Assembly: GCA_016716605.1 (NCBI GenBank)
Contig: JADJWA010000001.1
Coordinates: forward strand, 2,805,684 to 2,869,683
DNA length: 64,000 nucleotides
Direction: 5' to 3'
Source: Flavobacteriales bacterium
Lineage (GTDB): Bacteria > Bacteroidota > Bacteroidia > Flavobacteriales_F > PHOS-HE28
In this document: piece by piece, positions 1 through 64,000 of the stretch
Layout of the letters: every line of letters begins with the position of its first letter
Position numbering within the stretch: position 1 is the stretch's first letter
Notes under the pieces: model-generated
Told to the model about the DNA's origin: nothing
What the model saw: the letters and a program-made list of their open reading frames with translations, nothing else
Databases searched by the model: none
Made by a program: the position numbers and the translations under genes

Positions 1-168
1 GGAGGTTGGAAGCGTAGCGTGCTAAAGGAATTGGAGGCTGCCGATGTATACCTCCACCCGACCTATGCTCGGGCCGTGTAAGCACTTAGTTGAATTTGGG
101 AGCTTCCACAGCGCCCGTCACAACGTAACGTCCCAAGGCTTAGAGTGTGCAACTCCTAGAGGATTCCT

Positions 169-993: not shown

Positions 994-1004
994 CACTGCC
1001 TCCC

Positions 1005-4254: not shown

Positions 4255-4275
4255 ACGTGTCGGATCGCCAATCAG

Positions 4276-5310: not shown

Positions 5311-5338
5311 CGTGTATCCTCAACGGTTTCATGCTCCG

Positions 5339-6826: not shown

Positions 6827-6832
6827 CGTTGT

Positions 6833-7453: not shown

Positions 7454-7502
7454 ATTGTTCAAAGGAACGAACGGCAGCATTGATTGTGATGTTCGCTATT
7501 TG

Positions 7503-9392: not shown

Positions 9393-9404
9393 ATCAGGTG
9401 CGGT

Positions 9405-10595
9405 TCAATGGTGGTGCTCGCCACTTCCCTTGGTCAATTCACTGAGGAGGTAGTAGGCCCCTGAGACCACCACTTTGGCATCGGTAGCAAGCTGCTCGAA
9501 GGGCGTTACAGCGGTATATCCCTGATCACTTACACCAATGCGCACTTGCACTTGCTTGAAAGCGTTTTCCTCATGCTGCACGAAGATGAAGTGGTCGTCG
9601 CCGTTGCTCACGATGGCATCGTTCGGCACAGCCAGCGCACTGTCACTTTTCACCTGAATACGCGCGTCAATGAACATGCCTGGCAACAAATGATCGTCGA
9701 TGTCCTTCATGCGTGCATGAGCGACCACGGCCTGCTGTCCTTCCTCGAAGGATCGGTTCACCCCGTATATCTCCGCTTCATGCGATGAATGTGCGTCGTT
9801 GGCGATGGTGAAGCTCACCTTCTGGCCTTCGCGTACCTGTGCCAAGTCTTGCTCGAATACGGTGAGGTCGATGTGTAATGCACGGTTGTCGGTAATATCG
9901 AAGAGCGGTTTGTTCGGCTCGGCATACTGGCCAGTGGTGATGGCGATGGTATGCAAACTGCCAGGTATCGGAGCCCGTACCGCGAATGAACTGCGGATGG
10001 CACCTGCCGTGAAGCCCTCTGGATCTACACCAAAGAGTTTCAGTTTCTCGGCCATGGCCATTTGACGTGCCTCTGCACTGAGCAGGTCGCTCTGGGCCTG
10101 TTGCAAGGTGCGCTCGGCGTTGATGTTATCCGTTCGTAGATCGCGTTGACGGTTGAAGTCGGCCCGCTTCACCACCAACTGGGCGGCGCTCTCCAGATAG
10201 TCCTGTTGCAGTTGGAGGAATTCCGTACTGGCTAGTTCTGCGAGCACTTGTCCTTTCTGCACTGTCTGTCCTTCGGTGACGAGGATGCGCGTGATGGTCC
10301 CGCCCATGAGGGTACCCACTTGGGCTTGGTCCTGCGGTGGCAGCATGAGGCGACCGTTCACCTTCAGCGTGCCGCTCAATGTCTTGCGCTCCAATCCTGC
10401 GGTTTCCAGCCCGATGGCCTCGATCTGTGTAGGCGTCAATTCGACCTCGGCTCCTTCATGCTCTTCGTCATGATGTTGGCCTTCTTCTCCCACTTCTGGC
10501 GTGTTCCCCGAATCGCCACACGCGGACAGGAACAGGATGAGCAATGCCACGAGGGGAAGCCGTGACATGATGCGATGGATGAACATGTTGTTCAT
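9405..10595 (-). CDS. efflux RND periplasmic adaptor (CzcB/MFP family) with His-rich segments
   Basis: Lipoprotein-like N-terminus (LSACGDSG), His/Glu-rich EEGQHHDEEHEGAE, C-terminal GSGEHHH, and a biotinyl-lipoyl/beta-barrel MFP architecture. It sits between the RND pump and the ATPase. Confidence 0.75.
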   Translation of the reverse strand: MNNMFIHRIMSRLPLVALLILFLSACGDSGNTPEVGEEGQHHDEEHEGAEVELTPTQIEAIGLETAGLERKTLSGTLKVNGRLMLPPQDQAQVGTLMGGTITRILVTEGQTVQKGQVLAELASTEFLQLQQDYLESAAQLVVKRADFNRQRDLRTDNINAERTLQQAQSDLLSAEARQMAMAEKLKLFGVDPEGFTAGAIRSSFAVRAPIPGSLHTIAITTGQYAEPNKPLFDITDNRALHIDLTVFEQDLAQVREGQKVSFTIANDAHSSHEAEIYGVNRSFEEGQQAVVAHARMKDIDDHLLPGMFIDARIQVKSDSALAVPNDAIVSNGDDHFIFVQHEENAFKQVQVRIGVSDQGYTAVTPFEQLATDAKVVVSGAYYLLSELTKGSGEHHH

Positions 10596-10614
10596 GATGG
10601 TTCGTTTGAAGGGC

Positions 10615-14925: not shown

Positions 14926-15030
14926 GCGGAATGCGTGAATGGGAATGAGAACCTGAGAGAAAAGGACAACGCGCGGAACGCACGTCTGCATGGCCACAAT
15001 AGGCCACGCGAAAGGGCCGAGGCCCTTAAC

Positions 15031-15336
15031 TCAAGCTTGGGGAGGTTGCCACACGGGAATGCGCGGCATTGAAAGCACGAATGCAGTGCCGTCATTATAG
15101 GCCAGTGAGCCTACTGGTGGCACGCGAGGCGAATGATCGATCACGACCAAAGTGACGCCTGCGCAACATGTGCATGTGCAGAACGGGCTGCACAAGTCCA
15201 TGTGCTCATGCTGGTCCCCCTCGGTTTGAACTGCGCACGTCTCGTGGTTTGCTACCTGAGCGTCAGTGCAAGGTTGAACGCTGAGGGCGAATACATAGAG
15301 GGCAAGGATGATGCAGAACCAGCGCATGGGTGGCAA
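15031..15336 (-). CDS. small secreted Cys/His-rich protein (putative metal-binding)
   Basis: 101 aa with a signal peptide, then HETCAVQTEGDQHEHMDLCSPFCTCTCCAG. It lies directly upstream of, and co-oriented with, the czc-like operon. Confidence 0.4.
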   Translation of the reverse strand: MPPMRWFCIILALYVFALSVQPCTDAQVANHETCAVQTEGDQHEHMDLCSPFCTCTCCAGVTLVVIDHSPRVPPVGSLAYNDGTAFVLSMPRIPVWQPPQA

Positions 15337-15348
15337 AGCTATGCAACG

Positions 15349-15780
15349 TCAGTTCAGCAGGAAACGTTCGTTATTCCTTCGTAGATGGCGCTCGAAAAGA
15401 CTGCTGATCCAGAAGTAGTGCGCGGTCACGGCGTGCAACCGTTGAGCATCCACCACTCCTTCAATGGCCACCTCATATGTGGCCAAGGGAGTGCGCAACT
15501 GACCATTATGCTGAGAAAGGTGCGCGAATAGGTCGATCAGGACCGCCTCGCCGAACATGGCTCCTTCGGCGGTGACAAGGATGCACTTGTCCCTTCTATT
15601 GTGAGCAAAGAGGTAGTTGTAGGTCAGTGCTGACATCCTGAGTGCGACCTCGGCTGGATAGTAGCGCGTCAATAGCATGCGAATGCCGCGTCGCAGGTCT
15701 TGGATATGCCCGCCACGCTTCGATGCGAAGACTAGTGACACATTTGAAGGCCGAGGTCGGAAGGGGTCATGTAGGTCCAT
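15349..15780 (-). CDS. hypothetical protein
   Basis: 143-aa ORF co-oriented in the island. No recognisable motif. Confidence 0.35.
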   Translation of the reverse strand: MDLHDPFRPRPSNVSLVFASKRGGHIQDLRRGIRMLLTRYYPAEVALRMSALTYNYLFAHNRRDKCILVTAEGAMFGEAVLIDLFAHLSQHNGQLRTPLATYEVAIEGVVDAQRLHAVTAHYFWISSLFERHLRRNNERFLLN

Positions 15781-15834
15781 GCAAAGGGTCGGGAGGGAAT
15801 TGGAAGCCCCCCCATATATGGGCGAATCGCAGCC

Positions 15835-16317
15835 TCACCACAAGCGATGGACACCAGCAGCATGCTCTGGTTCTTTTTGAAGGGGCGCACCCGCCGTCTG
15901 CCCCTTATGGGCAACGGGCGGGGCACCCCCTCCTGTTTGATATTCTTCCTTCATCAGGTAGCATCTGGCGTTCACATCCTTGCCGAGGTAGAAGCACAGG
16001 CCCTCTGCACCCCAGACAGGAGTGATCTTGACATTCAATCCCTTTTCTCGCAGTTCGTCCGCAATACGCTCGACCTCCTTCTTCTCTTTCGCCATGAGCC
16101 AATGCACATGCGCCCGATCTATCACTGCGCTACCTCTTTGTTGCATTCTTTCTACTACGATCACGCCGTCGTGTGGGATGGTGGCTGCCATTTTCACAAC
16201 ATCCTGGCATAGCTGTTCTGCACCTTCATCGGTACATGGATTCGCTGTTATCATGTAGCCTCCGTTCACGAGGAGGCCACCTAGATCTCTTACTGTACTG
16301 CGGTCAATCTGTTTCAT
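15835..16317 (-). CDS. hypothetical protein
   Basis: 160-aa ORF co-oriented in the island. No recognisable motif. Confidence 0.35.
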   Translation of the reverse strand: MKQIDRSTVRDLGGLLVNGGYMITANPCTDEGAEQLCQDVVKMAATIPHDGVIVVERMQQRGSAVIDRAHVHWLMAKEKKEVERIADELREKGLNVKITPVWGAEGLCFYLGKDVNARCYLMKEEYQTGGGAPPVAHKGQTAGAPLQKEPEHAAGVHRLW

Positions 16318-16519
16318 GCTACTTGCTTTTGGGTTAGTTGGACATACGAAGACTTCTGGAGGCTTGGCCTCATCAACTTTGTGGGGAGTGTCCCACTACG
16401 ACAACGGCGATCTCGAACAGGGTGGAAGTGCAAATGCGTGGGCGACTTCGCAGGGAAATCGAGGGCATTCCAACCCTTGCAATAGGGCGGCAGGGCGGCA
16501 TGCGCTGGTACGATCGGAA

Positions 16520-16987
16520 TCACTCAGGCGGTCGCTTCGGAGGCGATTCCGTAGTTCTCTCGCTCTTTGACTTTTCGCGCTCCCGTTCTTTCCTTCTGCG
16601 GTACATCGCCACGGCTGTACGCACAGTTCCCGATGGCAGCATCAGGAATTCATCCAACGCGGCCTTGCTGAAGCGGTAATGCTCACCCTTCAGGGCATCG
16701 GGATTTACAGGCTTGACGAGGCGGGCACCAACGTAGTCGCGAAATGTCCGTTCGCTCACCGCTATGTAGCTCCACGCCTCACAGCTAGAGTGGAGCTTAC
16801 CGTACTTCGGTGTTGGTGTTTCGACCTTTTTATGGAGGTCTGCGACTTGTTGGCGAAGTGCGGATATTTCCTGCACTTCCATGGCGTCGCGTGCCATGTC
16901 AAGAGCAAGGGCATGTATGCGCTTTGCTCGTGTGGGGGGTAACTTGCTTAAAGCAGTTGATAGCTCATCTATGTCCCATGCTGACAT
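16520..16987 (-). CDS. excisionase/AlpA-like helix-turn-helix DNA-binding protein
   Basis: SERTFRDYVGARLVKPVNPDALKGEHYRFSKAALDEFL resembles the HTH_17/excisionase-type domain that accompanies Bacteroidota integrases. The tail is basic (RRRKEREREKSK). It is adjacent to the integrase. Confidence 0.5.
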   Translation of the reverse strand: MSAWDIDELSTALSKLPPTRAKRIHALALDMARDAMEVQEISALRQQVADLHKKVETPTPKYGKLHSSCEAWSYIAVSERTFRDYVGARLVKPVNPDALKGEHYRFSKAALDEFLMLPSGTVRTAVAMYRRRKEREREKSKSERTTESPPKRPPE

Positions 16988-17193
16988 CCATTAGGCCCGA
17001 TCACTTGTATGTGCCCTTGTCCTAGAAGCGCCAACTAGGTTCCCCTCTTCTTCGGCGCTCAACGCAAAACTAAGTGCATGAAGTTGGTCGTGCCAACTCG
17101 ATTATTCCACAGGACATGTCGAAATGTTGAGAAAAACCCAAGGTCTAAGTACCGATCGTTCACGCTTTTCTATGTACGCGCGGGAACAACATG

Positions 17194-18712
17194 TCACGCC
17201 CTTCTGCGCTCTGGTTCACGAAAGCGCACGTTGATTAAGTCGATGCCAGGAAACACTTCATCCGCCATGGCCATCGCTTGGATGACCAGCAGTTCCGCCT
17301 TCTTTTCCAAGGGGCGATTCAAATACGCGCGATCAGCGGACTTGTCGGGTAGTTTATGACCCATCATCTGGCACACAAGGTCGCGGGCAATACCCATGTC
17401 CTCCTCAGCCCATTGCTTGGTCGTGCGCCTGAAATCATGACTGGATAAAACCGAGTGTAGAGGCAGGGAGTTTTGTTCTTTTTTGCTCTTTTTCCCACGG
17501 ACCTTTACCTCGATTTGGTCGTACAGCCTGTTGAAACCCATGGCCAGAGCAACCTCCTTGATGTGGCGGTTGTGCGTCTGGTCGTCGGGAGGCATTACAG
17601 GCCGCACGCCTTTCAGAACGTCCAGCGCTGGGGTGAACAACGGGATGACCATCTCGTTCATCGGGGGCTTTGTGCGGACCATTCGGATGGCTGTAAAATC
17701 GAAGGTCTTGCCTTTGAACCATTGAATGTCTTTTGTGAGCACCTGCCGCAAGTCCGTTATGTCCACCCCCGTGAAACCCTGAAGAACCATCAACTGGCGG
17801 CAGTTCTCCAAGTGTGGCTTGTCCAGCTTCGTCAGGACTAGATGGGAAAGCTCTTCAGCGGTCAAGTAGGGCTTGACCGTGTGCTCCCGACTGGCCGATA
17901 CGAACGAAGTTGTGTCTATGGACTTGATCCGTTTGTTTTCGATGGCATGGTTCAGAGTCGTCTTTATCTGCTGCTGGTACTTCTCCAACGTGTTGACCGA
18001 GTACCGAGATGGCTGTTCGTCCACGGCCCATTTCCACGCGTCGGTACTTTTCATGTCCTTGGGGTCGGCGTAGGGGAGATATTCAGTGGATCGGGCTATG
18101 AGGTTGCTAAAATCGGTCCAGTCCAAAGGGGTGAAATTTCCGAGCATGACCTCTCCTTCGCCCTTGATCCAGCCGAACAGCGGGTGGGTCTTATCCTTGG
18201 CCATGGATCGGATGACTGGCAACATGTCCAAGAGCGCTGCGGTGGTTGAGTACTTCTGTCTCGTCCGAATGTTGTTGCAGAAGTTTGGATCAGCGATGAT
18301 CTCACGGATGTAGTCCGCCAGTGGGATGGGGGTGATCTGCTCAGTATCGACCTTCAGGCGGGCGAGTATCTGGTCGGGGTGTGGCTTTCCCCCCAGTTCC
18401 TTGCTGAGGGCCTTGAATGTATTCCAGACCTCCGCCCTCAGTTCAGCAACACCTTCCGTAATCTGGACCAGTTGGTCCTTCTTTTTCTTCATGAAGGAGC
18501 CGCTGAATGCCTGCTCCGTCATGTCCCACTCGCTTGCATCCACGGCATGTCCCGTTGTCACCCTTAGGGTGAGGTATTGGGGGGACCTTCCAACCTCCAT
18601 TGCACGAAAGCCATAGTTGAATGCTAGCAGGAGGTGGATCCGCCCCTGAACGTATCGCCCAACCAACCTGATGGAGGCGGGGCCGTAGGTCTTCTTGTAT
18701 GTCTTGCCCATG
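17194..18712 (-). CDS. tyrosine site-specific integrase (Bacteroidota type)
   Basis: The C-terminal catalytic region has HDFRRTTKQWAEE (HxxR), MGHK and DRAYLNRP (catalytic Tyr). The N-terminal start is uncertain. The ORF is open to 19002, but a plausible Met lies at 18712 (MGKTYKK...). Confidence 0.75.
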
Positions 18713-18918
18713 GTATATGGTGTTAGTTTCACCGCAACGTTCCGATGAGCCCGATGCTGGCCCCAAATCCAACATTGCTCCAAAATCCGCTCAAAGACCC
18801 TCTTCCCGAACCCTTCTGAAGTGCCCGTCCAACTTTGCATTCCCCCAGCACTGGCGAGGCGTTGGTACCCATGCAGACCACTGCATCGCCATGCAAACCG
18901 TCGCGTCCCCCGCGCTAC

Positions 18919-18955
18919 AAGGCCATCCCCGAAAGGCGGATGGCCTTTTGCTTTT
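18919..18955 (+). other. GC-rich hairpin with T-tract at the island/backbone junction
   Basis: aaggccatcc-ccgaaaggc-ggatggcctt followed by ttgcttttc. It lies 11 nt upstream of the next + strand gene and about 200 nt upstream of the integrase N-terminus. Confidence 0.35.
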
Positions 18956-18965
18956 CTTCGCAGGC

Positions 18966-19379
18966 ATGCGCGCGCTCCTCTACGTGCTGTTGCTCTCTTC
19001 ATGCGGGGTTGGCTTCAGGCCCTCCGATGAGGCCTCGATCCGATCACTGATGGCTGAACAGGAAGCGGCCTGGGACCGTGGTGACATCCCCGGCTTCATG
19101 ACGGCCTATTCCGATAGCATCTGCTTCCACAGCCCCAGGGGCAATACCTGCGGCAAGCAGCAGGTCATGGAGAACTACATGCGCTCTTACCCCACGCCGG
19201 AGCACATGGGCGATCTGCAATTCGGAATCCACGAGGTGGTGCCCGCTGGCGCGGACCATGCCTGGCTTTCGGGTACTTGGGCGCTGCACCGCCAGGCAGA
19301 TACCTTGAAAGGGGCCTTCGCGCTGCTCTGGGCGAGGCAGCCGGAGGGCTGGAGGATCATCAGGGACCACACGTATTGA
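18966..19379 (+). CDS. lipoprotein, SnoaL-like/DUF4440 (NTF2 fold) family
   Basis: The N-terminus LLLSSCGV is a lipobox. The motif AEQEAAWDRGDIPGFMTAYSD...GWRI is typical of NTF2-like DUF4440. The start is the internal ATG of ORF 18699..19379. Confidence 0.5.
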   Translation: MRALLYVLLLSSCGVGFRPSDEASIRSLMAEQEAAWDRGDIPGFMTAYSDSICFHSPRGNTCGKQQVMENYMRSYPTPEHMGDLQFGIHEVVPAGADHAWLSGTWALHRQADTLKGAFALLWARQPEGWRIIRDHTY

Positions 19380-49644: not shown

Positions 49645-51870
49645 TCAGTGCTTGCGTGGTGCCCTTCGGCTGGCGCCGCTCAGCGCTTCACCCGGGTCAT
49701 GCGCGGATCCGGCTACGGTCATCCGGAACTCAACCCGGCGGTTGCGGGCACGGCCCTCCTCGGACTTATTGCTCATGATCGGCTGGTTCTTTCCATGCCC
49801 AACCGGGACCAAGCGCGCCGGTGCAACGCCCGCATCAACCAAGAAGTCCATCACGGACAACGCCCTGCTCTGCGAGAGTTCGAGGTTGTAACGGTGCCCG
49901 CCGATGTCATCGGTATGCGCTTCGATCACCAAGTGCAGCTCCGGGTGCTGGCGCATCAGGCCGAGAATCTGTTCCAGCACCTCAAGCGACTCATCCTCGA
50001 TGGCCGCGCTCTTGTAGGCGAAGTGGATCGCATTGGTGCGCAGCTTCCGATGATTGAGTTCCTCGAGTTTGGCGAGATCGAGCAAGCTCAGGTCGATGAG
50101 CTTCTCCTCCCGCAGCGCGAATACCTCCGCATCAAGGAACTGGAGCTCCTTCACCTTCTTGAACACCTGATAGAGATCCTCGGCGCTCTTGGTCTCGCCG
50201 ACGGAGTAGGTGTATAGGCCGGCCACCGGGTCGAAGCGCTCCACCACACGATAGAACTTCTTGATCTGCGTGAAGCGGGCATCATCCAGGTCGATCCGCT
50301 CCTTGCTGCTGAATAATTGCACGCTGAACACGGCATCGGTGAGCGACTCGCCGCTCAGGCTGACATCATCGAAGGGCAGCTCCTGGTACTCGAAGGTGTG
50401 GGTCTTGCCGAAGGCGTCCTGGTACTCGGCCACAACGGCAAGGTCCTCGTGGTCCTTGAAACGGTCGAGGACCACCACGCTGCGGCTGTTGCAGCGATTG
50501 TTGATCGTGCCATCCGCCTCCGGCTCCCCGATGACATCCAGCCGGATCTGGTAGGTGCCCGGTTGCTTGAATGCATGGATCACGCGGAGGCCCTCCGCGT
50601 ATGAGCCATCGCCAAGGTCCCAATGGTACTCTGCGGGCCGGATGCCCGGCAGGTAGCTCAGCGCGCCGTTCAACTCCACGCGCCGGCCCGTGCGGACCGT
50701 GTCCTGCACAGCGGCCCAGGCTTGCTGCATATCCGCGACCTCCAGAGCCTGCTCGCCCAATTCATGGAACACAGTGCCGGTCTTCCTGTCAACCAGGATC
50801 GAACGGACCACGTATCGCCCAGGCTTGCTGTAGCAGTGCTGCGCTAGATAGCCTTTGATGCGGGTGCCGTCGCCCATGTCCCAGAAATGGTCAACGGGGA
50901 TGGATGAGGTGGCGGCGTGAGGGCGTTTGCGCAGGGTGTAGCAATAGTTGTTGCGCTTCTGCTCGGAGCAATCGCGGAATTTCGGGACCGTGCGTTTCAC
51001 GTGGTAGATCGCATCCGCGCCACTGCGGTCGGAACTGATCATTGCCTGGTATGCATCTGGCAGCAGATGGTAGCCGTGCTCGTTGCGTTCGCTATTGACC
51101 GGCGTCGGCATGGACTGAGGCGCGTCCCAGCCCGCACCCTTGGGCTGTGCGGCGTAGATGTCCAGGCCGCCCAGGCCGCCGAGCCTGTTGCTGGAGAAAT
51201 GAAGCGTTCCATCGGCTTGGAGCCTTGGATAGACCTCATCCATCTGCGTGTTCAGCTCAGGTCCGAGGTTCTGTGGTGCGCTCCAGCCTAGTGCGGTTCG
51301 TTCGCAACGATATAGATCCATGCCGCCATAGCCGCCCGGCCGGTCGCTGGCGAACACGAGGGTCCGGCCATCTGCGGAGAAGGCCGGGTGCATGTTGGAC
51401 GACTTAGGCTCATTGAATGGGAAGGGCTCCGGCATCGTCCACGCCTCGTTCTCTAGATGCGAGAAGAACAGGCCCAGCTGGCCGTTCGCCGCGCGCATGT
51501 TCGAGAGCTTCTTCGGGAGCACCTGATTGCGGGTGAAGCAGATGGTTCGCCCGGCATCCGTGAAGCTGGCGGGGCCTTCATTCACCGGTGTGCTCAGATT
51601 CTGGCTGAAGAGCACGGGAGCGCCGGCCTTGCCCGATTCGAGCGGCACGTAGTACAGGTCGCTCAAGGGCTTGCCGGACTCGGCATCCACGAAGCCCACG
51701 AACGCCGCGTTGTCACGGACGCTGCACATCACGAAACCGCTATCGAGGATCACGGGTGCATAATCCTCACCTGCCGGGCTGATGGCCAGCGGGCTCACCT
51801 CGTAGATGAGCTGCCCGCTCAGCGGCAGGCCGGCGCTGAGGGCGAAGAGGAGTGGAAGAGCGCTCTTCAT
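49645..51870 (-). CDS. OmpA-family protein with PD40 beta-propeller and PKD-like domains
   Basis: C-terminal OmpA domain (VIEAHTDDIGGHRYNLELSQSRALSV...RNRRVEF), WD40-like PD40 repeats, and a signal peptide. Confidence 0.8.
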   Translation of the reverse strand: MKSALPLLFALSAGLPLSGQLIYEVSPLAISPAGEDYAPVILDSGFVMCSVRDNAAFVGFVDAESGKPLSDLYYVPLESGKAGAPVLFSQNLSTPVNEGPASFTDAGRTICFTRNQVLPKKLSNMRAANGQLGLFFSHLENEAWTMPEPFPFNEPKSSNMHPAFSADGRTLVFASDRPGGYGGMDLYRCERTALGWSAPQNLGPELNTQMDEVYPRLQADGTLHFSSNRLGGLGGLDIYAAQPKGAGWDAPQSMPTPVNSERNEHGYHLLPDAYQAMISSDRSGADAIYHVKRTVPKFRDCSEQKRNNYCYTLRKRPHAATSSIPVDHFWDMGDGTRIKGYLAQHCYSKPGRYVVRSILVDRKTGTVFHELGEQALEVADMQQAWAAVQDTVRTGRRVELNGALSYLPGIRPAEYHWDLGDGSYAEGLRVIHAFKQPGTYQIRLDVIGEPEADGTINNRCNSRSVVVLDRFKDHEDLAVVAEYQDAFGKTHTFEYQELPFDDVSLSGESLTDAVFSVQLFSSKERIDLDDARFTQIKKFYRVVERFDPVAGLYTYSVGETKSAEDLYQVFKKVKELQFLDAEVFALREEKLIDLSLLDLAKLEELNHRKLRTNAIHFAYKSAAIEDESLEVLEQILGLMRQHPELHLVIEAHTDDIGGHRYNLELSQSRALSVMDFLVDAGVAPARLVPVGHGKNQPIMSNKSEEGRARNRRVEFRMTVAGSAHDPGEALSGASRRAPRKH

Positions 51871-51873
51871 GGG

Positions 51874-52800
51874 TCAGAAGTACCGCGGGTCCCTTACCCG
51901 GATGCGGTAGCCGAATTCGTATTGCACCAAGAGCTCATGCGAGCCGTGGTGATGCGGGTTGATCCTGGAGAAGCCGGCGTCGTATGAATAGCCAATCCGC
52001 CATTGCGGTGTGGGCAGCACCTCCACCATGCCGATGATGGCATCGCCGGTGCGAACCGATGCGCCAAGCCACAATTTGTCCTTGTAGATGAGATTGCCGC
52101 TCACATCGCCCTGCAGGCCACTGGCAAGCCGGTAACGGAGAAGCGAAGTGGGCTTCAGCTTGAATTCATCGTTCAAGGTGAACACGTAGCCGCCGGTGAC
52201 CATGGGCTCCAGGTCCACGCGCTCATCAGACAGCCGGTAGGTCCTGTTCAGCACGTCGTAGCGGTGCGCAAGGAGGAAGGGCACCGATGCGCCCACGTAC
52301 CCTGTCTTGGTCTGATACAGGACACCGGCGCTGAAATTCGGTCGGGCCGCTCCTCTCGAATCGCCCGCGAAGCTCGGATCGTTGCCATCGACGATGGCCA
52401 CTTGCGTCCATTGGGCGCGATAAAGGCTGAGGCCGGCTCCGATCCCGAAGGCGAGCTTGGCCTTCTTAGGCATCTTGATCCGGTAGGCATAGTTGGCCAG
52501 CAGGCCGGTCTCGTTGCTCACGCCGATGCGATCGTTGAAGACCATCAGCCCCAAGCCGACCTTGCTCCTGCGCACAGGTGCATGCACGGCGATGTTCTGG
52601 GTGATGGGCGCTCCATCGAAACCGACCCATTGCTGCCGGTGCGTGAGCGTGGCGCTAAGAACGTCGCGGCTTCCGGCATAAGCCGGATTGATGGCCAGGC
52701 CATTGAACAGGTATTGGCTCGTGAGTGGCGTGTGCTGGGACATGCAATCGACCGCGAGGGCCGCTGCCACGGAAGCAAGAAAGGGCAGTTGGAACCTCAC
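51874..52800 (-). CDS. type IX secretion system membrane protein PorP/SprF family
   Basis: QYLFNGLAINPAYAGSRDVLSATLTHRQQW is the PorP/SprF signature. It has a beta-barrel-like C-terminus and sits immediately downstream of the CHU_C adhesin. Confidence 0.8.
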   Translation of the reverse strand: MRFQLPFLASVAAALAVDCMSQHTPLTSQYLFNGLAINPAYAGSRDVLSATLTHRQQWVGFDGAPITQNIAVHAPVRRSKVGLGLMVFNDRIGVSNETGLLANYAYRIKMPKKAKLAFGIGAGLSLYRAQWTQVAIVDGNDPSFAGDSRGAARPNFSAGVLYQTKTGYVGASVPFLLAHRYDVLNRTYRLSDERVDLEPMVTGGYVFTLNDEFKLKPTSLLRYRLASGLQGDVSGNLIYKDKLWLGASVRTGDAIIGMVEVLPTPQWRIGYSYDAGFSRINPHHHGSHELLVQYEFGYRIRVRDPRYF

Positions 52801-55800
52801 CGTTTGATGATGACGGGGCCGTTGTACGTGCGTTGGCCACTTAGGTTAAGGACGTAGAAATAGGTGTCATCCGGCAGGGATTGGCCATTGCGCGAGCGGC
52901 CATCCCACTCGTTCGCATAGGCGTCGGCCTCAAAGACCAGTTTGCCCCAACGGTTGAAGACTTGCAATGCACTGTTCGGATAGGCTTCGATGCCCCGGAT
53001 CTCCCATCGGTCATTCGAGCCGTCACCGTTCGGGCTGTAGCCTTCCGGGATGAAGAGGTCATCGACATGCAGCAGCACGGTGTCGCTGACTGACGCACAT
53101 TGATTGATGCTGGCTGTGAGCACGATGAGGTTATCACCCAAGCCGAGCCCGGCGATGGCGGTTGAACTGTCATTGGGCTCCTCGATGCTGCCAGATCCGC
53201 TCAGCACCCACCAGCTGAGGTTGGCGCCTGCGGTAGCGCTGCCCAAGAGCCAAGTGTGATCAACTACGGCCAGGTACTGATCCTCGCCCGCATCAACGCT
53301 GAGGCCAGGCGCCGGATCAATGAAGCTGACAAGTGCGGTATCCGATGCGCTGCAAGCCCCGTTGGTCACGGTCCAGACCAAGGCATAGGTCCCGTATAGG
53401 GCTGCACCGATCTCAATGGCGGGCGTGTTCAGGCCAGTGTATGGGGTGATTCCCGCTGGAAGCGACCAGCTGCCGTTCGCGCTTACGGCCGACATCGAGG
53501 CGCGGAGCCCGCAAGCACTCACATCCGGCCCGGCATTGGCCACTGGCGGTTCGAGTACCATGATGGATTGGGCCGATTCCGAGGTGCATGAACCGATTGA
53601 TACCGAATACGTGACCTGAACCGCGCCTGACAGGCCACTTGGATCGAATACGCCATTGCTCACGCCGGTGCCGAGCCATGATCCACCAGGCGTGCCGGTG
53701 ACCAGTGCGTTGAGGTCGAGTGTGGCGCCGGTGCTGCAGAGTGCTGCTGGGAGTGACCAGCTCGCATCAGCGTCGGCAGCGATGGTGATGGATTGGCTCT
53801 CTGCTGCAGGGCAGTTGCCACCTATGGCATAGGAGATCTGATAGGTGCCCGGTGCACTGTTGCCGATATTGATGGTCCCGCTCGACGCGTCAATCACCAA
53901 ACCGGACGGGAATGCAGTGAACCCTCCGCTTGGCTGTGCGACCCACGGGGTTGCGGAGGGGTCGCCATGGCAGTAGGAGCTTTGCGCGTAGGCGAAGGAG
54001 GCGTCGCCCGCTGCGTTGAAGGTGATGGACACCGTGTCGATACCGATGCAAGAGCCGACGGTCACGGTCCAATACAGGTCGTAGCTGCCTGGCTGAGCGG
54101 CCACGACAACCGTTTGCGCCGCCGATGAATCCAAGAACGTGACATTCGCAGGCCCTGTCCATATACCAAGGCCAGTCGCTTGCATGGTGGCGGTGAGCCC
54201 GCAGATTGTTTGATCGGGGCCAGCTTCGCTAACGCAATCGATCAGCTGTCCAGCGCAGGAGCAATCAGCTCCAAACACATCGTTGCCTGTGGTGGGATCG
54301 CCGTCATCGCAAGGCGTGCCGGGCAGCGCCGATCCGCCGGGGACGTTGGTGCAATCGATCAGCACACCGACGCAGTTGCAGTTGAGGTCGTAGGCATCGT
54401 TGCCGGTGGTGGGATCGCCGTCATCGCAGGGCGTTCCGGGCAGCGCTGCGCCTCCGGGGACGTTGGTGCAATCGATCAGCTGTCCAGCGCAGGAGCAATC
54501 CGCGCCATACACGTCGTTGCCGGTGGTGGGATCGCCGTCATCGCAGGGCGTTCCGGGAAGCGCTGCGCCTCCGGGGACGTTGGTGCAATCGATCAGCTGT
54601 CCTGCGCAAGAGCAATCCGCGCCATACACGTCGTTGCCGGTGGTGGGATCGCCGTCATCGCAGGGCGTTCCGGGAAGCGCTGCGCCTCCGGGGACGTTGG
54701 TGCAATCGATCAGCTGTCCTGCGCAGGTGCAATCCGCGCCGTACACGTCGTTGCCCGTGGTGGGATCGCCGTCATCGCAGGGCGTTCCGGGCAGTGCCGA
54801 TCCGCCGGGGACGTTGGCGCAATCGATCAGCTGTCCAGCGCAGGAGCAATCCGCGCCGTACACATCGTTGCCGGTGGCGGGATCGCCGTCATCGCAGGGC
54901 GTTCCGGGAAGCGCTGCGCCTCCGGGGACGTTGGTGCAATCGATCAGCTGTCCAGCGCAGGAGCAATCAGCTCCAAACACATCGTTGCCTGTGGCGGGAT
55001 CGCCGTCATCGCAAGGCGTGCCGGGCAGTGCCGATCCGCCGGGGACGTTGGTGCAATCGATCAGCACACCGACGCAGTTGCAGTTGAGGTCGTAGGCGTC
55101 GTTGCCCGTGGTGGGGTCGCCGTCGTCACAGGGTGTTCCAGGCAGTGCCGATCCGCCGGGGACGTTGGCGCAATCGATCAGCTGTCCAGTGCAGGAGCAA
55201 TCAGCTCCAAACACATCGTTGCCTGTGGTGGGATCGCCGTCATCGCAAGGCGTGCCGGGCAGTGCCGATCCGCCGGGCACGTTCTCACAATCGAACAGCA
55301 GGCCGACGCAGTTGCAGTTGAGGTCGTAGGCATCGTTGCCCGTGGTGGGATCGCCGTCATCGCAGGGCGTTCCGGGCAGTGCCGATCCGCCGGGGACGTT
55401 GGCGCAATCGATCAGCTGTCCAGCGCAGGAGCAATCCGCGCCGTACACATCGTTGCCGGTGGCGGGATCGCCGTCATCGCAGGGCGTTCCGGGAAGCGCT
55501 GCGCCTCCGGGGACGTTGGTGCAATCGATCAGCTGTCCAGCGCAGGAGCAATCAGCTCCAAACACATCGTTGCCTGTGGCGGGATCGCCGTCATCGCAAG
55601 GCGTGCCGGGCAGTGCCGATCCGCCGGGGACGTTGGTGCAATCGATCAGCTGTCCTGCGCAAGAGCAATCCGCGCCGTACACATCGTTGCCGGTGGTGGG
55701 ATCGCCGTCATCGCAAGGCGTGCCGGGCAGTGCCGATCCGCCGGGGACGTTGGTGCAATCGATCAGCTGTCCTGCGCAAGAGCAATCCGCGCCGTACACA

Positions 55801-58800
55801 TCGTTGCCGGTGGTGGGATCGCTGTCATCGCAAGGCGTACCGGGCAGTGCCGATCCGCCGGGCACGTTCTCACAATCGAACAGCAGGCCGACGCAGTTGC
55901 AGTTGAGGTCGTAGGCATCGTTGCCCGTGGTGGGATCGCCGTCATCGCAGGGCGTTCCGGGAAGCGCTGCGCCTCCGGGGACGTTGGTGCAATCGATCAG
56001 CTGTCCTGCGCAAGAGCAATCCGCGCCATACACGTCGTTGCCGGTGGTGGGATCGCCGTCATCGCAGGGCGTTCCGGGCAGCGCCGAGCCGCCGGGGACG
56101 TTGGTGCAATCGATCAGCTGTCCAGCGCAGGAGCAATCCGCGCCGTACACATCGTTGCCGGTGGTGGGATCGCTGTCATCGCAGGGCGTTCCGGGCAGTG
56201 CCGATCCGCCGGGGACGTTGGTGCAATCGATCAGCTGTCCTGCGCAGGTGCAATCCGCGCCGTACACATCGTTGCCGGTGGCGGGATCGCCGTCATCGCA
56301 GGGCGTTCCGGGAAGCGCTGCGCCTCCGGGGACGTTGGTGCAATCGATCAGCTGTCCAGCGCAGGAGCAATCAGCTCCAAACACATCGTTGCCTGTGGTG
56401 GGATCGCCGTCATCGCAAGGCGTGCCGGGCAGTGCCGATCCGCCGGGGACGTTGGCGCAATCGATCAGCACACCGACGCAGTTGCAGTTGAGGTCGTAGG
56501 CATCGTTGCCCGTGGCGGGATCGCCGTCATCACAGGGCGTTCCGGGCAGCGCCGATCCGCCGGGGACGTTGGTGCAATCGATCAGCACACCGACGCAGTT
56601 GCAGTTGAGGTCGTAGGCATCGTTGCCGGTGGTGGGATCGCCGTCATCGCAGGGCGTTCCGGGCAGCGCTGCGCCTCCGGGGACGTTGGTGCAATCGATC
56701 AGCTGTCCAGCGCAGGAGCAATCAGCTCCAAACACATCGTTGCCTGTGGTGGGATCGCCGTCATCGCAAGGCGTGCCGGGCAGTGCCGATCCGCCGGGGA
56801 CGTTGGCGCAATCGATCAGCACACCGACGCAGTTGCAGTTGAGGTCGTAGGCATCGTTGCCCGTGGCGGATCGCCGTCATCACAGGGCGTTCCGGGCAGC
56901 GCCGATCCGCCGGGGACGTTGGTGCAATCGATCCAGCACACCGACGCAGTTGCAGTTGAGGTCGTAGGCATCGTTGCCGGTGGTGGGATCGCCGTCATCG
57001 CAGGGCGTTCCGGGCAGCGCTGCGCCTCCGGGGACGTTGGTGCAATCGATCAGCTGTCCAGCGCAGGAGCAATCCGCGCCATACACGTCGTTGCCGGTGG
57101 TGGGATCGCCGTCATCGCAGGGCGTTCCGGGAAGCGCTGCGCCTCCGGGGACGTTGGTGCAATCGATCAGCTGTCCTGCGCAAGAGCAATCCGCGCCGTA
57201 CACATCGTTGCCGGTGGCGGGATCGCCGTCATCGCAGGGCGTTCCGGGAAGCGCTGCGCCTCCGGGGACGTTGGTGCAATCGATCAGCTGTCCAGCGCAG
57301 GAGCAATCAGCTCCAAACACATCGTTGCCTGTGGCGGGATCGCCGTCATCGCAAGGCGTGCCGGGCAGTGCCGATCCGCCGGGGACGTTGGTGCAATCGA
57401 TCAGCTGTCCTGCGCAAGAGCAATCCGCGCCGTACACATCGTTGCCGGTGGTGGGATCGCCGTCATCGCAAGGCGTGCCGGGCAGTGCCGATCCGCCGGG
57501 GACGTTGGTGCAATCGATCAGCTGTCCTGCGCAAGAGCAATCCGCGCCGTACACATCGTTGCCGGTGGTGGGATCGCTGTCATCGCAAGGCGTACCGGGC
57601 AGTGCCGATCCGCCGGGCACGTTCTCACAATCGAACAGCAGGCCGACGCAGTTGCAGTTGAGGTCGTAGGCATCGTTGCCCGTGGTGGGATCGCCGTCAT
57701 CGCAGGGCGTTCCGGGAAGCGCCGAGCCGCCGGGCACGTTCTCACAATCGAACAGCAGGCCGACGCAGTTGCAGTTGAGGTCGTAGGCATCGTTGCCGGT
57801 GGTGGGATCGCCGTCATCGCAGGGCGTTCCGGGAAGCGCTGCGCCTCCGGGGACGTTGGTGCAATCGATCAGCTGTCCTGCGCAAGAGCAATCCGCGCCA
57901 TACACGTCGTTGCCGGTGGTGGGATCGCCGTCATCGCAGGGCGTTCCGGGCAGCGCCGAGCCGCCGGGGACGTTGGTGCAATCGATCAGCACACCGACGC
58001 AGTTGCAGTTGAGGTCGTAGGCGTCGTTGCCGGTGGTGGGATCGCCGTCATCGCAGGGCGTTCCGGGAAGCGCCGAGCCGCCGGGCACGTTCTCACAATC
58101 GAACAGCAGGCCGACGCAGTTGCAGTTGAGGTCGTAGGCATCGTTGCCGGTGGTGGGATCGCCGTCATCGCAGGGCGTTCCGGGCAGCGCCGAGCCGCCG
58201 GGGACGTTGGTGCAATCGATCAGCTGTCCTGCGCAGGTGCAATCCGCGCCGTACACATCGTTGCCGGTGGTGGGATCGCTGTCATCGCAGGGCGTTCCGG
58301 GCAGTGCCGATCCGCCGGGGACGTTGGTGCAATCGATCAGCTGTCCTGCGCAGGTGCAATCCGCGCCATACACGTCGTTGCCTGTGGTGGGATCGCCGTC
58401 ATCGCAAGGCGTGCCGGGCAGTGCCGATCCGCCGGGGACGTTGGTGCAATCGATCAGCTGTCCTGCGCAGGTGCAATCCGCGCCGTACACGTCGTTGCCC
58501 GTGGTGGGATCGCCGTCATCGCAGGGCGTTCCGGGCAGTGCCGATCCGCCGGGGACGTTGGCGCAATCGATCAGCTGTCCAGCGCAGGAGCAATCCGCGC
58601 CGTACACATCGTTGCCGGTGGCGGGATCGCCGTCATCGCAGGGCGTTCCGGGAAGCGCTGCGCCTCCGGGGACGTTGGTGCAATCGATCAGCTGTCCTGC
58701 GCAAGAGCAATCCGCGCCGTACACATCGTTGCCGGTGGTGGGATCGCCGTCATCGCAAGGCGTGCCGGGCAGTGCCGATCCGCCGGGGACGTTGGTGCAA

Positions 58801-61800
58801 TCGATCAGCTGTCCTGCGCAAGAGCAATCCGCGCCGTACACATCGTTGCCGGTGGTGGGATCGCTGTCATCGCAAGGCGTACCGGGCAGTGCCGATCCGC
58901 CGGGCACGTTCTCACAATCGAACAGCAGGCCGACGCAGTTGCAGTTGAGGTCGTAGGCATCGTTGCCCGTGGTGGGATCGCCGTCATCGCAGGGCGTTCC
59001 GGGAAGCGCCGAGCCGCCGGGCACGTTCTCACAATCGAACAGCAGGCCGACGCAGTTGCAGTTGAGGTCGTAGGCATCGTTGCCGGTGGTGGGATCGCCG
59101 TCATCGCAGGGCGTTCCGGGAAGCGCTGCGCCTCCGGGGACGTTGGTGCAATCGATCAGCTGTCCTGCGCAAGAGCAATCCGCGCCATACACGTCGTTGC
59201 CGGTGGTGGGATCGCCGTCATCGCAGGGCGTTCCGGGCAGCGCCGAGCCGCCGGGGACGTTGGTGCAATCGATCAGCTGTCCAGCGCAGGAGCAATCCGC
59301 GCCGTACACATCGTTGCCGGTGGTGGGATCGCTGTCATCGCAGGGCGTTCCGGGCAGTGCCGATCCGCCGGGGACGTTGGTGCAATCGATCAGCTGTCCT
59401 GCGCAGGTGCAATCCGCGCCGTACACATCGTTGCCGGTGGCGGGATCGCCGTCATCGCAGGGCGTTCCGGGAAGCGCTGCGCCTCCGGGGACGTTGGTGC
59501 AATCGATCAGCTGTCCAGCGCAGGAGCAATCAGCTCCAAACACATCGTTGCCTGTGGTGGGATCGCCGTCATCGCAAGGCGTGCCGGGCAGTGCCGATCC
59601 GCCGGGGACGTTGGCGCAATCGATCAGCACACCGACGCAGTTGCAGTTGAGGTCGTAGGCATCGTTGCCCGTGGCGGATCGCCGTCATCACAGGGCGTTC
59701 CGGGCAGCGCCGATCCGCCGGGGACGTTGGTGCAATCGATCAGCACACCGACGCAGTTGCAGTTGAGGTCGTAGGCATCGTTGCCGGTGGTGGGATCGCC
59801 GTCATCGCAGGGCGTTCCGGGCAGCGCTGCGCCTCCGGGGACGTTGGTGCAATCGATCAGCTGTCCAGCGCAGGAGCAATCCGCGCCATACACGTCGTTG
59901 CCGGTGGTGGGATCGCCGTCATCGCAGGGCGTTCCGGGAAGCGCTGCGCCTCCGGGGACGTTGGTGCAATCGATCAGCTGTCCTGCGCAAGAGCAATCCG
60001 CGCCGTACACATCGTTGCCGGTGGCGGGATCGCCGTCATCGCAGGGCGTTCCGGGAAGCGCTGCGCCTCCGGGGACGTTGGCGCAATCGATCAGCACACC
60101 GACGCAGTTGCAGTTGAGGTCGTAGGCATCGTTGCCGGTGGTGGGATCGCCGTCATCGCAGGGCGTTCCGGGCAGCGCTGCGCCTCCGGGGACGTTGGTG
60201 CAATCGATCAGCACACCGACGCAGTTGCAGTTGAGGTCGTAGGCGTCGTTGCCCGTGGTGGGGTCGCCGTCATCGCAGGGCGTTCCGGGAAGCGCTGCGC
60301 CTCCGGGGACGTTGGTGCAATCGATCAGCTGTCCAGCGCAGGAGCAATCCGCGCCATACACATCGTTGCCGGTGGTGGGATCGCCGTCATCGCAGGGCGT
60401 TCCGGGAACGATAATGATGAGTTCCAGGGTCTCGGTGTGGCAGCCAACGATGTGGGAATAACTGCCGCTGGCAGTGTAGGCGATTCCATCGGCCGCCCAG
60501 GTGTAGCTGTTGCAGGCGGTAGCGACCGAGTGGTTGCTGGTGCTGGGCGTGATAGTGAGGTCGAGGGTCTCGGTGTGGCAGCCAAGAGTGTAGGCGTAGC
60601 TGCCGCTGGCAGTGTAGGTATTGCCATCCACAGCCCAGATGTAGCTGTCGCAGGCACTGACCGCCGTCGTATCAGACGTTTGCCCGGCTATCCGGATCGT
60701 GTGGTTATTCCATAGCCCATTTCCGAATGCATCCTCGATCCACATGGTCATGTTCACCAGCGTGTCCTGGTTGAACACCGTGCCCGGAGCGGGTGTCATC
60801 GTGTTGGTCCAGGCGCTGCAATCGCTCACGGTGATACTGTCCCGGAGGTCAGGGAAAACGAGTGAGCAACCCGGGCCGCTGAGCAGGAGCGGGTATTCGT
60901 CGTATAGCGGGCATGCTACTGTGGGTGCATCGTCATCTGTCACTTCTATCTCGAAGGAGCATGTGCTCTGCAGGCCGGCGGCGTCGGTGGCGGTGTACTC
61001 GATTGCGTGCGTGCCGATCGCGAACGTGCTTCCTGGCGCTTGGCCATCGGTCTGGACGATCGTTGCGCCTGGGCAGTTGTCGATCACAGTTGGCGGAGTC
61101 CACGTGGCCGTTGCACCGCATGTGTTGGCCACGGAGGTCATCGATATGTCCCCTGGGCAATTCGCGAATGCCGGAGGTGTGGCATCAACGATGCTCACGC
61201 TGAATGCGCAGTTGGCGCTCAGACCGCCCTGTGTGGCTGTCAGCGTGACCGTGACCGTACCGGTGCCTACGGATGCGCCCGGTGCCGGTGATTGCGAGAC
61301 CACCACGCCGGTGTTCCCGCTGCAATTCCCTGCAACAGTCGCGCTGAGGGTGTAATCCGGCAAGGACACGGTGCAATTCGCGCCTGCATTGAGTTGCGCA
61401 ACAAAGGCGGGGCAGGAGATGGAAGGGGCGTTCGAATCGACCACATTCACGCTCCACGCGCACGTATCCTGGTTGCCGCTGTCATCACGGTGGATTTCCA
61501 TGATCTGATGAAGCCCTGGAGCGAACGCGTGGTTCAACTGTCCGGTCACCTCTTGCCAAAGCGTATTGCCCGACTCCAGGATGAAGGCGCGATAATCGCT
61601 CTCGGTGTCAGCATCGCAGTTGTCCGAGCTCTCGATCGTCGGGAAGGTGTACAGGTGCTCACAGCTGTTAGGGTCGGTATTCAGGACAATCGTTCCGGGC
61701 CCAGGACAGTTGTCGAACACCGGTGGATCGTTGTCGATGGTGACCACGGTCATCGGGCACTGGCCTACGTTCGCCCATGCATCGGTTGTGTAGATGTGGA

Positions 61801-64000
61801 TGATGTCCCCTGTCTGGACCAGGCTGCCCACTGCGAGGTCCTGCAGCAAACTCAGCGAGCTGGTGCAGTTGTCCATGACGCTGGTCGCCATGCCGGTCAC
61901 ATTAGGCACTGCTGCCTTGCATGAGGCGCCTGCAGTGAGTTCAATCGTCGGCGGGCAGGTCACCAAGGGGGCCTCATAGTCGCCGCTGATCACCACGAAG
62001 CTGCATGCGCTCGTGTTGCCCGATGGATCGATTGCGGTATAGGTCACGGTTACGGTATCTGGAAGCCACAGTCCATCACCATGGGTCGAGGTCCACGCGA
62101 CACTTGTGCAGTTATCGCTCAATGAATCGGGCGGATTCAGGCTGACATCCGCCCCGCACTGACCGGTAACGTACGTGCTCGAATAGCTGGCCGGGCACAC
62201 GATCATCGGAGCTATCGTGTCCAGCACGGTGATTGACCAGTCGCAGATACTGAAGTTCCCGTTCGCGTCGAAGATCGTGTCGGTGAATTGGTGCGTCCCC
62301 AAGGAAGGTCGATCGCGCTTCCGCCACCAACACCCAGATCCACATCGACCAGTATCGCGGTGCCGTTCACGGAGATGGTCCCGCCAGCTGATCCCGCGAT
62401 CAGGAATGGGCCACCGCTGATCGGTCCGAGGCAATTGTCAGTGCTCGCGATGTTCGGAACATTGTACGGCGCCGTGCAGGATGCCGCGGTCACAAAGAGC
62501 GTATCGTCCTGGGGGCAGACCACCGATGGCGGGATCAGGTCCTGCACGATGATGGTGGTTGTGCTGCTATAGGTGGTGCCGCATGCGCCCCCATCCAGCA
62601 GAACCCGGAATCGCATGGTGCCGGTGATTCCGCTCCAGGTAAGGGAGTCGGATGATTCAGTGAGCGGGATCCAGGTGACGCCATCCACGCTGCGCTCCCA
62701 TCGGATCACCTGGCCGCTGGAGCCCGTGAGGGTGAGCACACCGGAAGCGCTGGGGCAATAGGTGCCGCCGCCACTGATGGTGCCGCCTTCAGGTGGGTCG
62801 TCCACAAGGATCGTGCGTGTATGCGTGTAATTGCAGGAACCAAGTATCACAGCGTAGGTGACGGGATACTGACCTGAGGCGGGTGGCGTGAATGTGCCTG
62901 CTGCGCTCACGTATGGCCCGCCGCTCCAGATGCCACCAGCCATGCTGGATCCCAGGAAGCGGACAGCGTCGAGCAGGAAGGCGGTATAGAGCCCGTTGCT
63001 GTGCCGTTGCACCTTGATGAAGCGTGCGTTCACCGGTACCGGGTAGCTCGTGGTGACGTAGGTTCCGCTGGTGGTGCTGTAGGTGGTTGAGTTGCTCCAG
63101 GTCACACCATCCAAGGATGAGGAAACGAGCATGCGCGCCTGCACGCCGGCGGTCTGGCTTCGCCACAAGAGGCTTACGGCCTCTCCAACCAGAACCGTAT
63201 CGGCCAGATCAAGCACCGCCCAGCTACTCGTGGCGTTGAAGGATGCTCCGACTCCGTTTGGAGCGCCAACAGCTTGCTCGGGGGTTATGGCGTTGGAGCT
63301 GGCAACCACCGAATCGGCATAAGCCAGCAGGTAGATGTTCAGGTCGAATGGAGCATTGCTCGTGCAGAACGGACCTGGTTGCGCGAAGCGGGCCGGATTG
63401 TTCGAGACGTTGGCCCAATCGGGGTCAGTGAAGCTGGCCGTGAACAGGTCCGTGCCGCTTGATCCGGCGTACGTGTTGCTGCCCAGAGTGAGCGCGTCCT
63501 CGAATTGTCCGCCGACGATTTGGCCTCCATTGCCCGTAGCGGCGATCGCCATTGCGCTTTCATCATCAGGGCTCGCTTCGCGCTGGTACCACACGGCCGT
63601 GCCATCCCGGTTGAATCGAGCGAACAGGAGATCTTCATCGGAATTGCCCGGGATCACGGTGCCGCCATCACTGGTCAGTGTACCGGAGCTCATTCCGGCC
63701 ACATTGATCTGCCCGTTCCGGCCAACCGAGACATCGTAACCTGTGGCGCCGTGGTCAATGCTGCTCGAGGCGGTCCGGATCCAATTGGTGATGCCGTTGG
63801 TTGGATGGAGCGATGCAAGGAACCAGTAATCGTGCGTGCCGGGATTCGTCGGCGTGATGCCGCCCGGGAATAGCGTTCCAGTGTGCGTTCGGCCGGTGAT
63901 GTACACACCGGCGCAATCGACCGCCACGCCGTTGCACTCCGCTTCCGAGTCACCCGGATTGTTGATCAGCCTGGTCCAAGCATGACCACCCGCAAGGCTC
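52797..64000 (-). CDS. giant T9SS-secreted cell-surface adhesin (HYR/Ig-like domains, ~53 Cys-rich 39-aa repeats, CHU_C gliding-motility C-terminal domain). It is 5'-truncated by the window and has local frame breaks
   Basis: The C-terminus NGDGSNDRWEIRGIEAYP...DDTYFYVLN is the CHU_C/T9SS type B sorting domain. HYR-like domains lie at 60.4 to 62.4 kb. ORFs 52797..56822, 56880..59630, 59624..62434 and 62212..63927 are collinear pieces of one reading direction, separated by 1-nt indels. Confidence 0.65.
54180..60410 (-). repeat. tandem array of about 53 near-identical 117-bp units encoding the repeat LIDCTNVPGG(S/A)ALPGTPCDDGDP(T/A)TGNDVYGADCSCAGQ
   Basis: Strict 117-nt periodicity is visible directly. 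Long blocks are identical at an offset of 3159 bp (27 units). Confidence 0.9.

Follow-up and report, generated by a model that had tools for sequence, protein, structure and literature searches.

What kind of protein carries some fifty tandem copies of a cysteine-rich repeat, and is the gene encoding it, which is broken in frame as assembled, still a working gene? These questions are raised by the giant minus-strand gene at the end of a 64,000-nucleotide (nt) stretch of a Flavobacteriales bacterium assembly (contig JADJWA010000001.1, positions 2,805,684 to 2,869,683); this whole stretch is referred to below as the window. Taken as a whole, the locus is probably explained by a SprB-like type IX secretion system (T9SS) adhesin cassette, in which the adhesin has an expandable stalk of hairpin beads and the frame breaks are long-read errors. 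Genes of this type, encoding giant T9SS adhesins with a repetitive body and a PorP/SprF partner, are already known; the stalk module is new.

The dominant tandem array of the window lies at 54234..60406 on the minus strand and was resolved by Tandem Repeats Finder (TRF) into 52.8 copies with a period of 117 nt (score 8088, 86% matches, without indel columns). When the minus strand was divided at the anchor GATTGC, it yielded 52 full units and a partial first unit, and a hidden Markov model (HMM) of the unit counted 53 units in the repaired protein. Each unit has 39 amino acids and four cysteines, all four of which are invariant in 52/52 units; together with 21 other residues, they make 25 of the 39 positions invariant (n = 52). 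The unit consensus is DCTNVPGG[SA]ALPGTPCDDGDP[TA]TGND[VA]Y...C.C.G..I, or, in a wider form, DC[TAE]NVPGG[SA]ALPGTPCDD[GS]DP[TA]TGND[VA][YF]...C.C.G..[IF]. A preliminary description of this DNA had placed about 53 copies of a four-cysteine, 39-amino-acid repeat here, and its coordinates, unit length, consensus and copy number were correct. It had also described the copies as nearly identical in nucleotide sequence, which overstates their similarity: in addition to the 86% matches, the array encodes 22 distinct unit proteins, with three main flavours (...VYGADCSCAGQLI, ...AYDLNCNCVGVLI and ...AYDLNCNCVGLLF), and the mean unit-to-unit divergence is 0.30 at synonymous sites (pS). Exact duplicates are nonetheless present, with lengths of 612, 592 and 539 nt and offset by whole unit numbers, and segmental duplications within the array were found at offsets of 5, 11, 15, 22, 24, 26 and 27 units.

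At nonsynonymous sites, the mean divergence between units is only 0.08 (pN; pN/pS 0.26), and the array remains in register throughout, except for three 1-nt changes. The unit is, therefore, a constrained protein module under strong purifying selection. A plus-strand open reading frame (ORF) of 1,864 amino acids (54180..59774) was rejected as a shadow of the array, since the homologues, the domain context and the pN/pS signal all lie on the minus strand; this antisense frame lacks stop codons only because the repeat does, and it is a trap for gene callers.

With four single-base frame breaks repaired (see below), the gene has a continuous frame of 3,734 amino acids, still open at base 64000, with its N-terminus beyond the window. 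Loci of relatives are given here by L numbers; 79 loci were kept from species-representative genomes, every one belonging to an uncultured member of the Flavobacteriales or Bacteroidota. Two orthologues, L066 and L074, were picked by tblastn searches of the fetched loci with the head, the tail, the PorP protein and the PorE-like protein of the window, and L082 was picked through its C-terminal homologue. The domain order of the giant protein is a propeller-like and discoidin-like head, HYR modules, the array, a PKD/Ig-like region and a CHU_C (T9SS type B) tail. The N-terminal part (62554..63999, minus strand), incomplete and with its frame still open where the window ends, contains a propeller-like region and, at about 62998..63237 (minus strand), a segment resembling discoidin (F5/8 type C), matched by F5_F8_type_C with an expectation value (E) of 2.5e-5, under the Pfam cut-off. 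The homologous N-termini of L080 and of the complete orthologue L074 begin with a hydrophobic segment resembling a signal peptide.

About five to six HYR modules follow (60917..62553, minus strand), detected with the Pfam family HYR (PF02494; E 2.9e-30, 104.9 bits, four stretches) and as one further stretch. Two copies of a motif read from the sequence, CDSY.W..DG.TYT.SG.Y...GC.TE.L.L, directly precede the array (60419..60664, minus strand); this motif has no match to a Pfam family and is also present at the end of the L080 contig. Between the array and the tail, the PKD/Ig-like region (53052..54233, minus strand) gave weak matches (K319L-like_PKD, E 0.0034; He_PIG, E 0.035), and in the orthologue L074 the K319L-like_PKD match lies over the Pfam cut-off, at 32.2 bits. 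The C-terminus, ending with the stop codon, is a CHU_C/T9SS type B sorting domain (52797..53051, minus strand) with strong support from PF13585 (E 1e-26, 93 bits against a cut-off of 27) and from the NCBIfam model TIGR04131 (E 2.4e-20, 72.5 bits against a cut-off of 35). The HYR-like and Ig-like flanks and the type B sorting tail had all been proposed from the first reading of the sequence and were borne out, as was the statement that the repeat is unlike those of SprB: neither the head nor the array nor the tail matched the SprB repeat family (PF13573) at E ≤ 1.

The gene directly downstream encodes a PorP/SprF-family outer-membrane protein (51874..52800, minus strand; PF11751, E 5.6e-71 over the full profile length), and its start overlaps the stop codon of the giant gene (GTGA). 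It is followed by a gene for a PorE-like periplasmic protein with PD40, PKD and OmpA domains identified by Pfam (49645..51870, minus strand), which is syntenic in L082, L066 and L074. The order cargo, PorP/SprF, PD40/PKD/OmpA is retained in these three loci, and L082 has the gene order of the window for eight downstream genes, including those for BatA, a dihydroorotase-like protein, a tetratricopeptide repeat (TPR) protein, a deformylase and a tRNA U5-methyltransferase. Type B cargo is known to be bound by a PorP-like partner, as in the PorE-PorP-PG1035 complex and in SprB-SprF (PMC9143113), and the secretion of a type B substrate requires a cognate PorP/SprF shuttle, usually encoded by an adjacent gene (PMC12618676). 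The presence of PorP/SprF and PorE-like genes next to a type B cargo gene fits these published complexes. Judged from its sequence and its neighbours, the giant gene is functionally that of a SprB-like surface adhesin, in that it encodes a type B cargo accompanied by PorP/SprF and PorE-like partners of its own; it lies outside the SprB repeat family.

The number of units differs greatly between orthologues. L074 is a complete ORF of 2,003 amino acids with 4 units, L066 an intact ORF of at least 4,479 amino acids with 29 units and eight interleaved CGxC motifs, and L082 contains 38.2 copies of a 117-nt unit, as against 53 units in the window gene. Unit identity is higher within arrays (0.75-0.91) than between orthologous arrays (0.54-0.69), a hallmark of concerted evolution by unequal recombination or gene conversion. 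In L066, a 219-nt (73-amino-acid) super-repeat at 8008-9783 alternates the 39-residue unit with DCNxTINGTAxxDxCGVCSGGTTG, the first 12 residues being common to both. A further relative of the head (L080, 53% identical) lies on a contig ending exactly at the expected start of the array.

The repeat is much more widespread than the window alone indicates, a breadth missed by the preliminary description. When 1.84 billion cluster representatives were searched exhaustively by profile, 1,726 proteins were retrieved at E ≤ 1e-3, of which 897 reached E ≤ 1e-10 and 268 reached E ≤ 1e-30; the repeat thus defines a family with about 1,700 protein clusters, virtually all of them from uncultured Flavobacteriales. 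The best profile matches, where names were available, are called "hypothetical protein" or "T9SS type A sorting domain-containing protein". A word-indexed search gave 174 proteins at E ≤ 0.001 among 8,000 candidates scored; these matches come almost exclusively from metagenome-assembled genomes labelled "Flavobacteriales bacterium", many have a type A T9SS tail, and many are visibly truncated or frameshifted. In species-representative genomes, at least 295 of the pattern matches, among the 600 listed, encode a relative, and identity to the window repeat is at most 69% among the matches listed from these genomes. The closest relatives are the syntenic L082 and L081, the latter being a C-terminal fragment with 92% identity that lies on a contig of 2.5 kb.

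Long arrays are not restricted to type B proteins. Motif counts per locus reach 57 (L017), 48 (L036), 43 (L026) and 42 (L055), and the TRF arrays of type A loci contain up to 30.7 and 33.6 copies of a 123-nt unit. The order in type A loci is a signal peptide, a conserved head of about 580 amino acids, the array, a CGxC motif, thrombospondin type 3 (TSP3) repeats and a type A tail; the head was found by tblastn in 49 fetched loci, and a Pfam scan of it in the type A relatives gave no match. L017 (5141-19407) and L036 (1981-14857) each contain two tandem genes in which the cysteine repeat connects this head with TSP3 repeats followed by a T9SS tail of type A. Among 1,855 distinct units pooled from the family, D1, C2, G8, G13, C16, D18, T23, D26, C32, C34 and G36 are near-invariant and position 28 is aromatic; all four cysteines are kept in 1,663 of the 1,855 units, and in 159 position 22 is an additional cysteine. 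The unit can be summarised by the signature D-C-x-G-[VTI]-x-[GN]-G-x-A-x-P-G-[TS]-x-C-[DN]-D-x-[DN]-x-x-T-x-x-D-x-[WYF]-x3-C-x-C-x-G. In L002, L024, L041, L044, L048, L052, L071, L080 and L081, short-read metagenome contigs break off at or within the arrays, as expected for a repeat that is longer than the reads, and the family is consequently truncated systematically and under-counted in public assemblies.

The view that the unit is a new motif held up in every comparison made. Searches of Pfam-A at E ≤ 1 with eight tandem units and 50 diverse family members returned only scattered, inconsistent sub-threshold matches, with the SprB, TSP_3, DUF4215 and EGF-type families absent from them. The unit had no match in NCBIfam or among PDB sequences (best E 0.38 for a single sequence and 0.28 for the profile), comparison of the modelled unit with the PDB yielded no fold match, and literature searches on the motif strings and on cysteine-rich repeats in T9SS proteins found nothing relevant. 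The modelling of tandem units had been suggested in the preliminary description; AlphaFold2, run on four of them, gave one β-hairpin per unit, with a predicted local distance difference test (pLDDT) score of 87 overall and above 92 for the first three units. The four cysteines most likely form two disulfides per unit, and the conserved acidic loop could hold calcium. We tentatively propose that the unit may represent an undescribed fold, a β-hairpin bead with two disulfides, possibly locked by calcium, which would serve as a general, length-adjustable stalk in T9SS surface proteins of uncultured Flavobacteriales, those of type A as well as those of type B, with the copy number (4 to >50 in orthologues) setting the reach of the head.

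An expandable stalk or spacer is suggested by three features of the family: the array is invariably placed between a head, which varies, and a membrane-proximal tail, the tails with which it is combined are of two kinds, and its copy number spans an order of magnitude among orthologues, with the protein sequence constrained. The earlier idea of a modular rod or spacer is strengthened accordingly by the reuse of the unit in a different architecture with a type A tail and by syntenic orthologues with 4, 29, 38 and 53 units. In the window protein, an off-window Sec signal peptide would direct the polypeptide to the periplasm, its passage through the T9SS would be mediated by the C-terminal type B (CHU_C) domain, and the PorP/SprF-like protein encoded downstream, with the adjacent PorE-like OmpA-family protein, would hold it at the outer membrane. 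The distal head, with its propeller-like, discoidin-like and HYR modules, may bind the substrate, and the 53 tandem units would be strung together as small β-hairpin beads stapled by disulfides, making a stalk to keep the head far from the cell, the length of which would be altered by unequal recombination within the array. At a guess, if each bead measures 2 to 3 nm, the 53 units would span roughly 100 to 160 nm.

This scheme requires an intact gene, and the coding frame is not intact as assembled. It runs along the minus strand in four parts (63999..62215, 62437..59627, 59684..56883 and 56876..52800), broken by four single-base indels, three of them inside the array, and repair of four bases restores one continuous frame. 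The single ORF first described at 52797-64000 is thus interrupted by four 1-nt indels and by a TGA at 56880-56882. The first lesion (62290..62310, minus strand), recognised from the frame shift, is the loss of one base in GACCTTCCTT-GGGGACG within an HYR-like module; the equivalent site in L080 is in a single frame throughout. The other three are apparent from the unit list, all on the minus strand: unit 6 has 116 nt through the loss of a C in GATCC[C]GCC (59667..59680), which shifts the rest of the gene; unit 29 has 118 nt, with an extra G at its end in CTG[G]ATC (56924..56939); and unit 30 has 116 nt through a C loss identical to that in unit 6 (56859..56872). The TGA falls in the out-of-frame stretch between the last two lesions. 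A division into several separate genes was rejected, since the frame changes sit inside an HYR-like module and repeat units and the orthologues are single ORFs. A generally poor base quality of the assembly was also rejected, since pairs of overlapping frames elsewhere are distinct complete genes; the other window genes tested are intact, with full-length domain matches, and about 52 kb were examined without lesions.

We consider it fairly probable that the indels are residual long-read consensus errors in a repeat beyond the reach of short-read polishing. All four lesions are 1-nt changes at short base runs, and three lie where short reads have no unique placement, the rest of the window being clean. 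Moreover, the array extends over 6.2 kb and exact repeats of 600 nt are crossed, at which short-read contigs stop, so the assembly must rest on long reads. Several observations weigh against this interpretation. The first lesion lies in unique sequence outside the array; the identical deletions of units 6 and 30 lie within duplicated blocks and could equally be a real mutation that was copied; and the syntenic orthologue L082 is also frame-broken, with at least four frame changes and lesions outside its array too, a pattern compatible with a systematic fault of assembly as well as with real decay that recurs. Against the adhesin scheme as a whole, the signal peptide and N-terminus on which secretion would depend lie beyond the window end.

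The first three of these points are also those favouring the main alternative, that the gene is a true pseudogene, with real frameshifts and a real TGA, in which case the adhesin would have been inactivated recently and this strain would make no full-length protein. A copied mutated block would be expected to yield the same deletion in duplicated units, and the presence of four lesions in the giant gene, with none in the other 52 kb or so examined, also argues for decay. However, the units are under strong purifying selection, lesions other than 1-nt indels are absent, all those observed are typical of long-read consensus errors, and the fact that repeats escape short-read polishing suffices to explain why the lesions cluster in the array. 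In L066 and L074, the orthologous genes are intact. On balance, we regard a pseudogene as the less likely reading, though a serious one, and retain the interpretation of the breaks as consensus errors in a functional adhesin gene.

A second alternative concerns the role of the array. The repeats may themselves be the working part of the protein, as a multivalent binder of calcium, metal or polysaccharide acting through the conserved loop C-D-D-G-[DN]-x-x-T-x-N-D-x-aromatic, with copy number tuning avidity rather than reach. The near-invariance of D18, D26, T23 and the aromatic position 28 across the 1,855 units exceeds the needs of a linker, and many small proteins have only one to five units, a number for which a long stalk makes little sense. 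The conserved residues may nevertheless merely hold a tiny fold together, with or without calcium, similarity to known binding modules is absent, and the units lie between head and anchor in every architecture seen. A binding array is, therefore, unlikely, and the stalk is preferred. Least likely of all is that the length and order of the array are artefacts of assembly (expansion, collapse or strain chimera) and that the real number of units differs: with its exact internal duplicates (539-612 nt) and the many blocks that are shared, the array is hard to assemble, the source resembles a metagenome-assembled genome, in which strain mixtures are common, and the indels reveal an imperfect consensus, but the differences between units (pS 0.30, 22 protein variants) are sufficient to anchor long reads, independent assemblies of relatives hold 29-57 units, in one case inside an intact ORF of 4,479 amino acids, and the array is in register apart from its three 1-nt changes.

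Three observations were made elsewhere in the window. Positions 1-19000 have a lower G+C content (0.52-0.59) than the rest (0.60-0.66) and contain genes for a protein combining Prok-E2_B and ThiF, a fusion of a major facilitator superfamily (MFS) protein with rhodanese, a P-type ATPase, an HlyD-type adaptor, a DUF6660 protein and an HTH_17 protein; this region looks like an efflux or metal island, possibly a mobile one. Within it, a minus-strand ORF of 1,460 amino acids (10615-14997) has a full AcrB/RND (resistance-nodulation-division) domain at residues 29-1051 and a TolC-like OEP domain at residues 1289-1459, an unusual fusion of inner- and outer-membrane efflux components, unless a stop codon has been lost. 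Just upstream of this gene, positions 15034-16395 (minus strand) contain open segments of 105, 161 and 186 codons in the same frame, with single stops between them; only the first has a family match (DUF6660), and the three are probably small genes.

Giant T9SS adhesins decide attachment, gliding and floc formation in Bacteroidota; catalogues of their stalk modules are poor, since it is inside these modules that short-read assemblies break. The unit family described here, with about 1,700 clusters, is abundant in activated-sludge Flavobacteriales and has no Pfam, NCBIfam or PDB entry and no detectable structural relative. A named model would improve the annotation of thousands of "hypothetical" fragments and flag assembly breakpoints, and a natural series, in which one type of head and tail is combined with 4, 29, 38 or 53 units, would allow the effect of stalk length on adhesion to be tested. 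The general picture of T9SS cargo function is unchanged by these findings.

Three known repeats or motifs resemble the unit in part. The Myxococcus cysteine-rich repeat (DUF4215/TIGR02232) is a bacterial extracellular cysteine-rich repeat with a CDDGN-like core, but its models in Pfam and NCBIfam had no match at E ≤ 1 to the window units or the 50 diverse family members. TSP3 repeats (PF02412) are likewise short, tandem, rich in cysteine and aspartate and found in extracellular proteins, and they adjoin the unit in many family members; the unit differs in having no Pfam or fold match, and an hhalign comparison with the TSP3 stretches that these proteins contain returned a probability of 0.2%. 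By contrast, the motif DCxGVxGGxAxxDxCGxCxGGxTG, which in these bacteria stands before the TSP3 repeats of type A T9SS proteins and in L066 alternates with the unit, has the first 12 residues of the unit (DCxGVxGGxAxx) in common with it, with an hhalign probability of 85%, and differs in its second half, which is CGxCxGG rather than the PGTxCDDGxxxTxND...CxCxG hairpin. By profile comparison, this motif is the only detectable kin of the unit.

At the level of the whole gene, the closest parallels are with two type B systems. SprB and SprF of Flavobacterium johnsoniae, a gliding adhesin and its PorP-like partner, share with the window a giant repetitive surface protein with a CHU_C/TIGR04131 tail and a PorP/SprF-family gene directly downstream; the window gene differs in having no SprB repeats, its body consisting of HYR modules and the four-cysteine 39-amino-acid repeat, and the window offers no evidence of gliding or of the partners sprC and sprD. 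The three proteins that form the PorE-PorP-PG1035 complex of Porphyromonas gingivalis are mirrored by the type B cargo, the PorP-like β-barrel and the PD40/OmpA periplasmic protein of the window (PMC9143113). PG1035 is, however, small and without a repeat stalk, whereas the three genes of the window form one tight cassette, which is conserved in four relatives.

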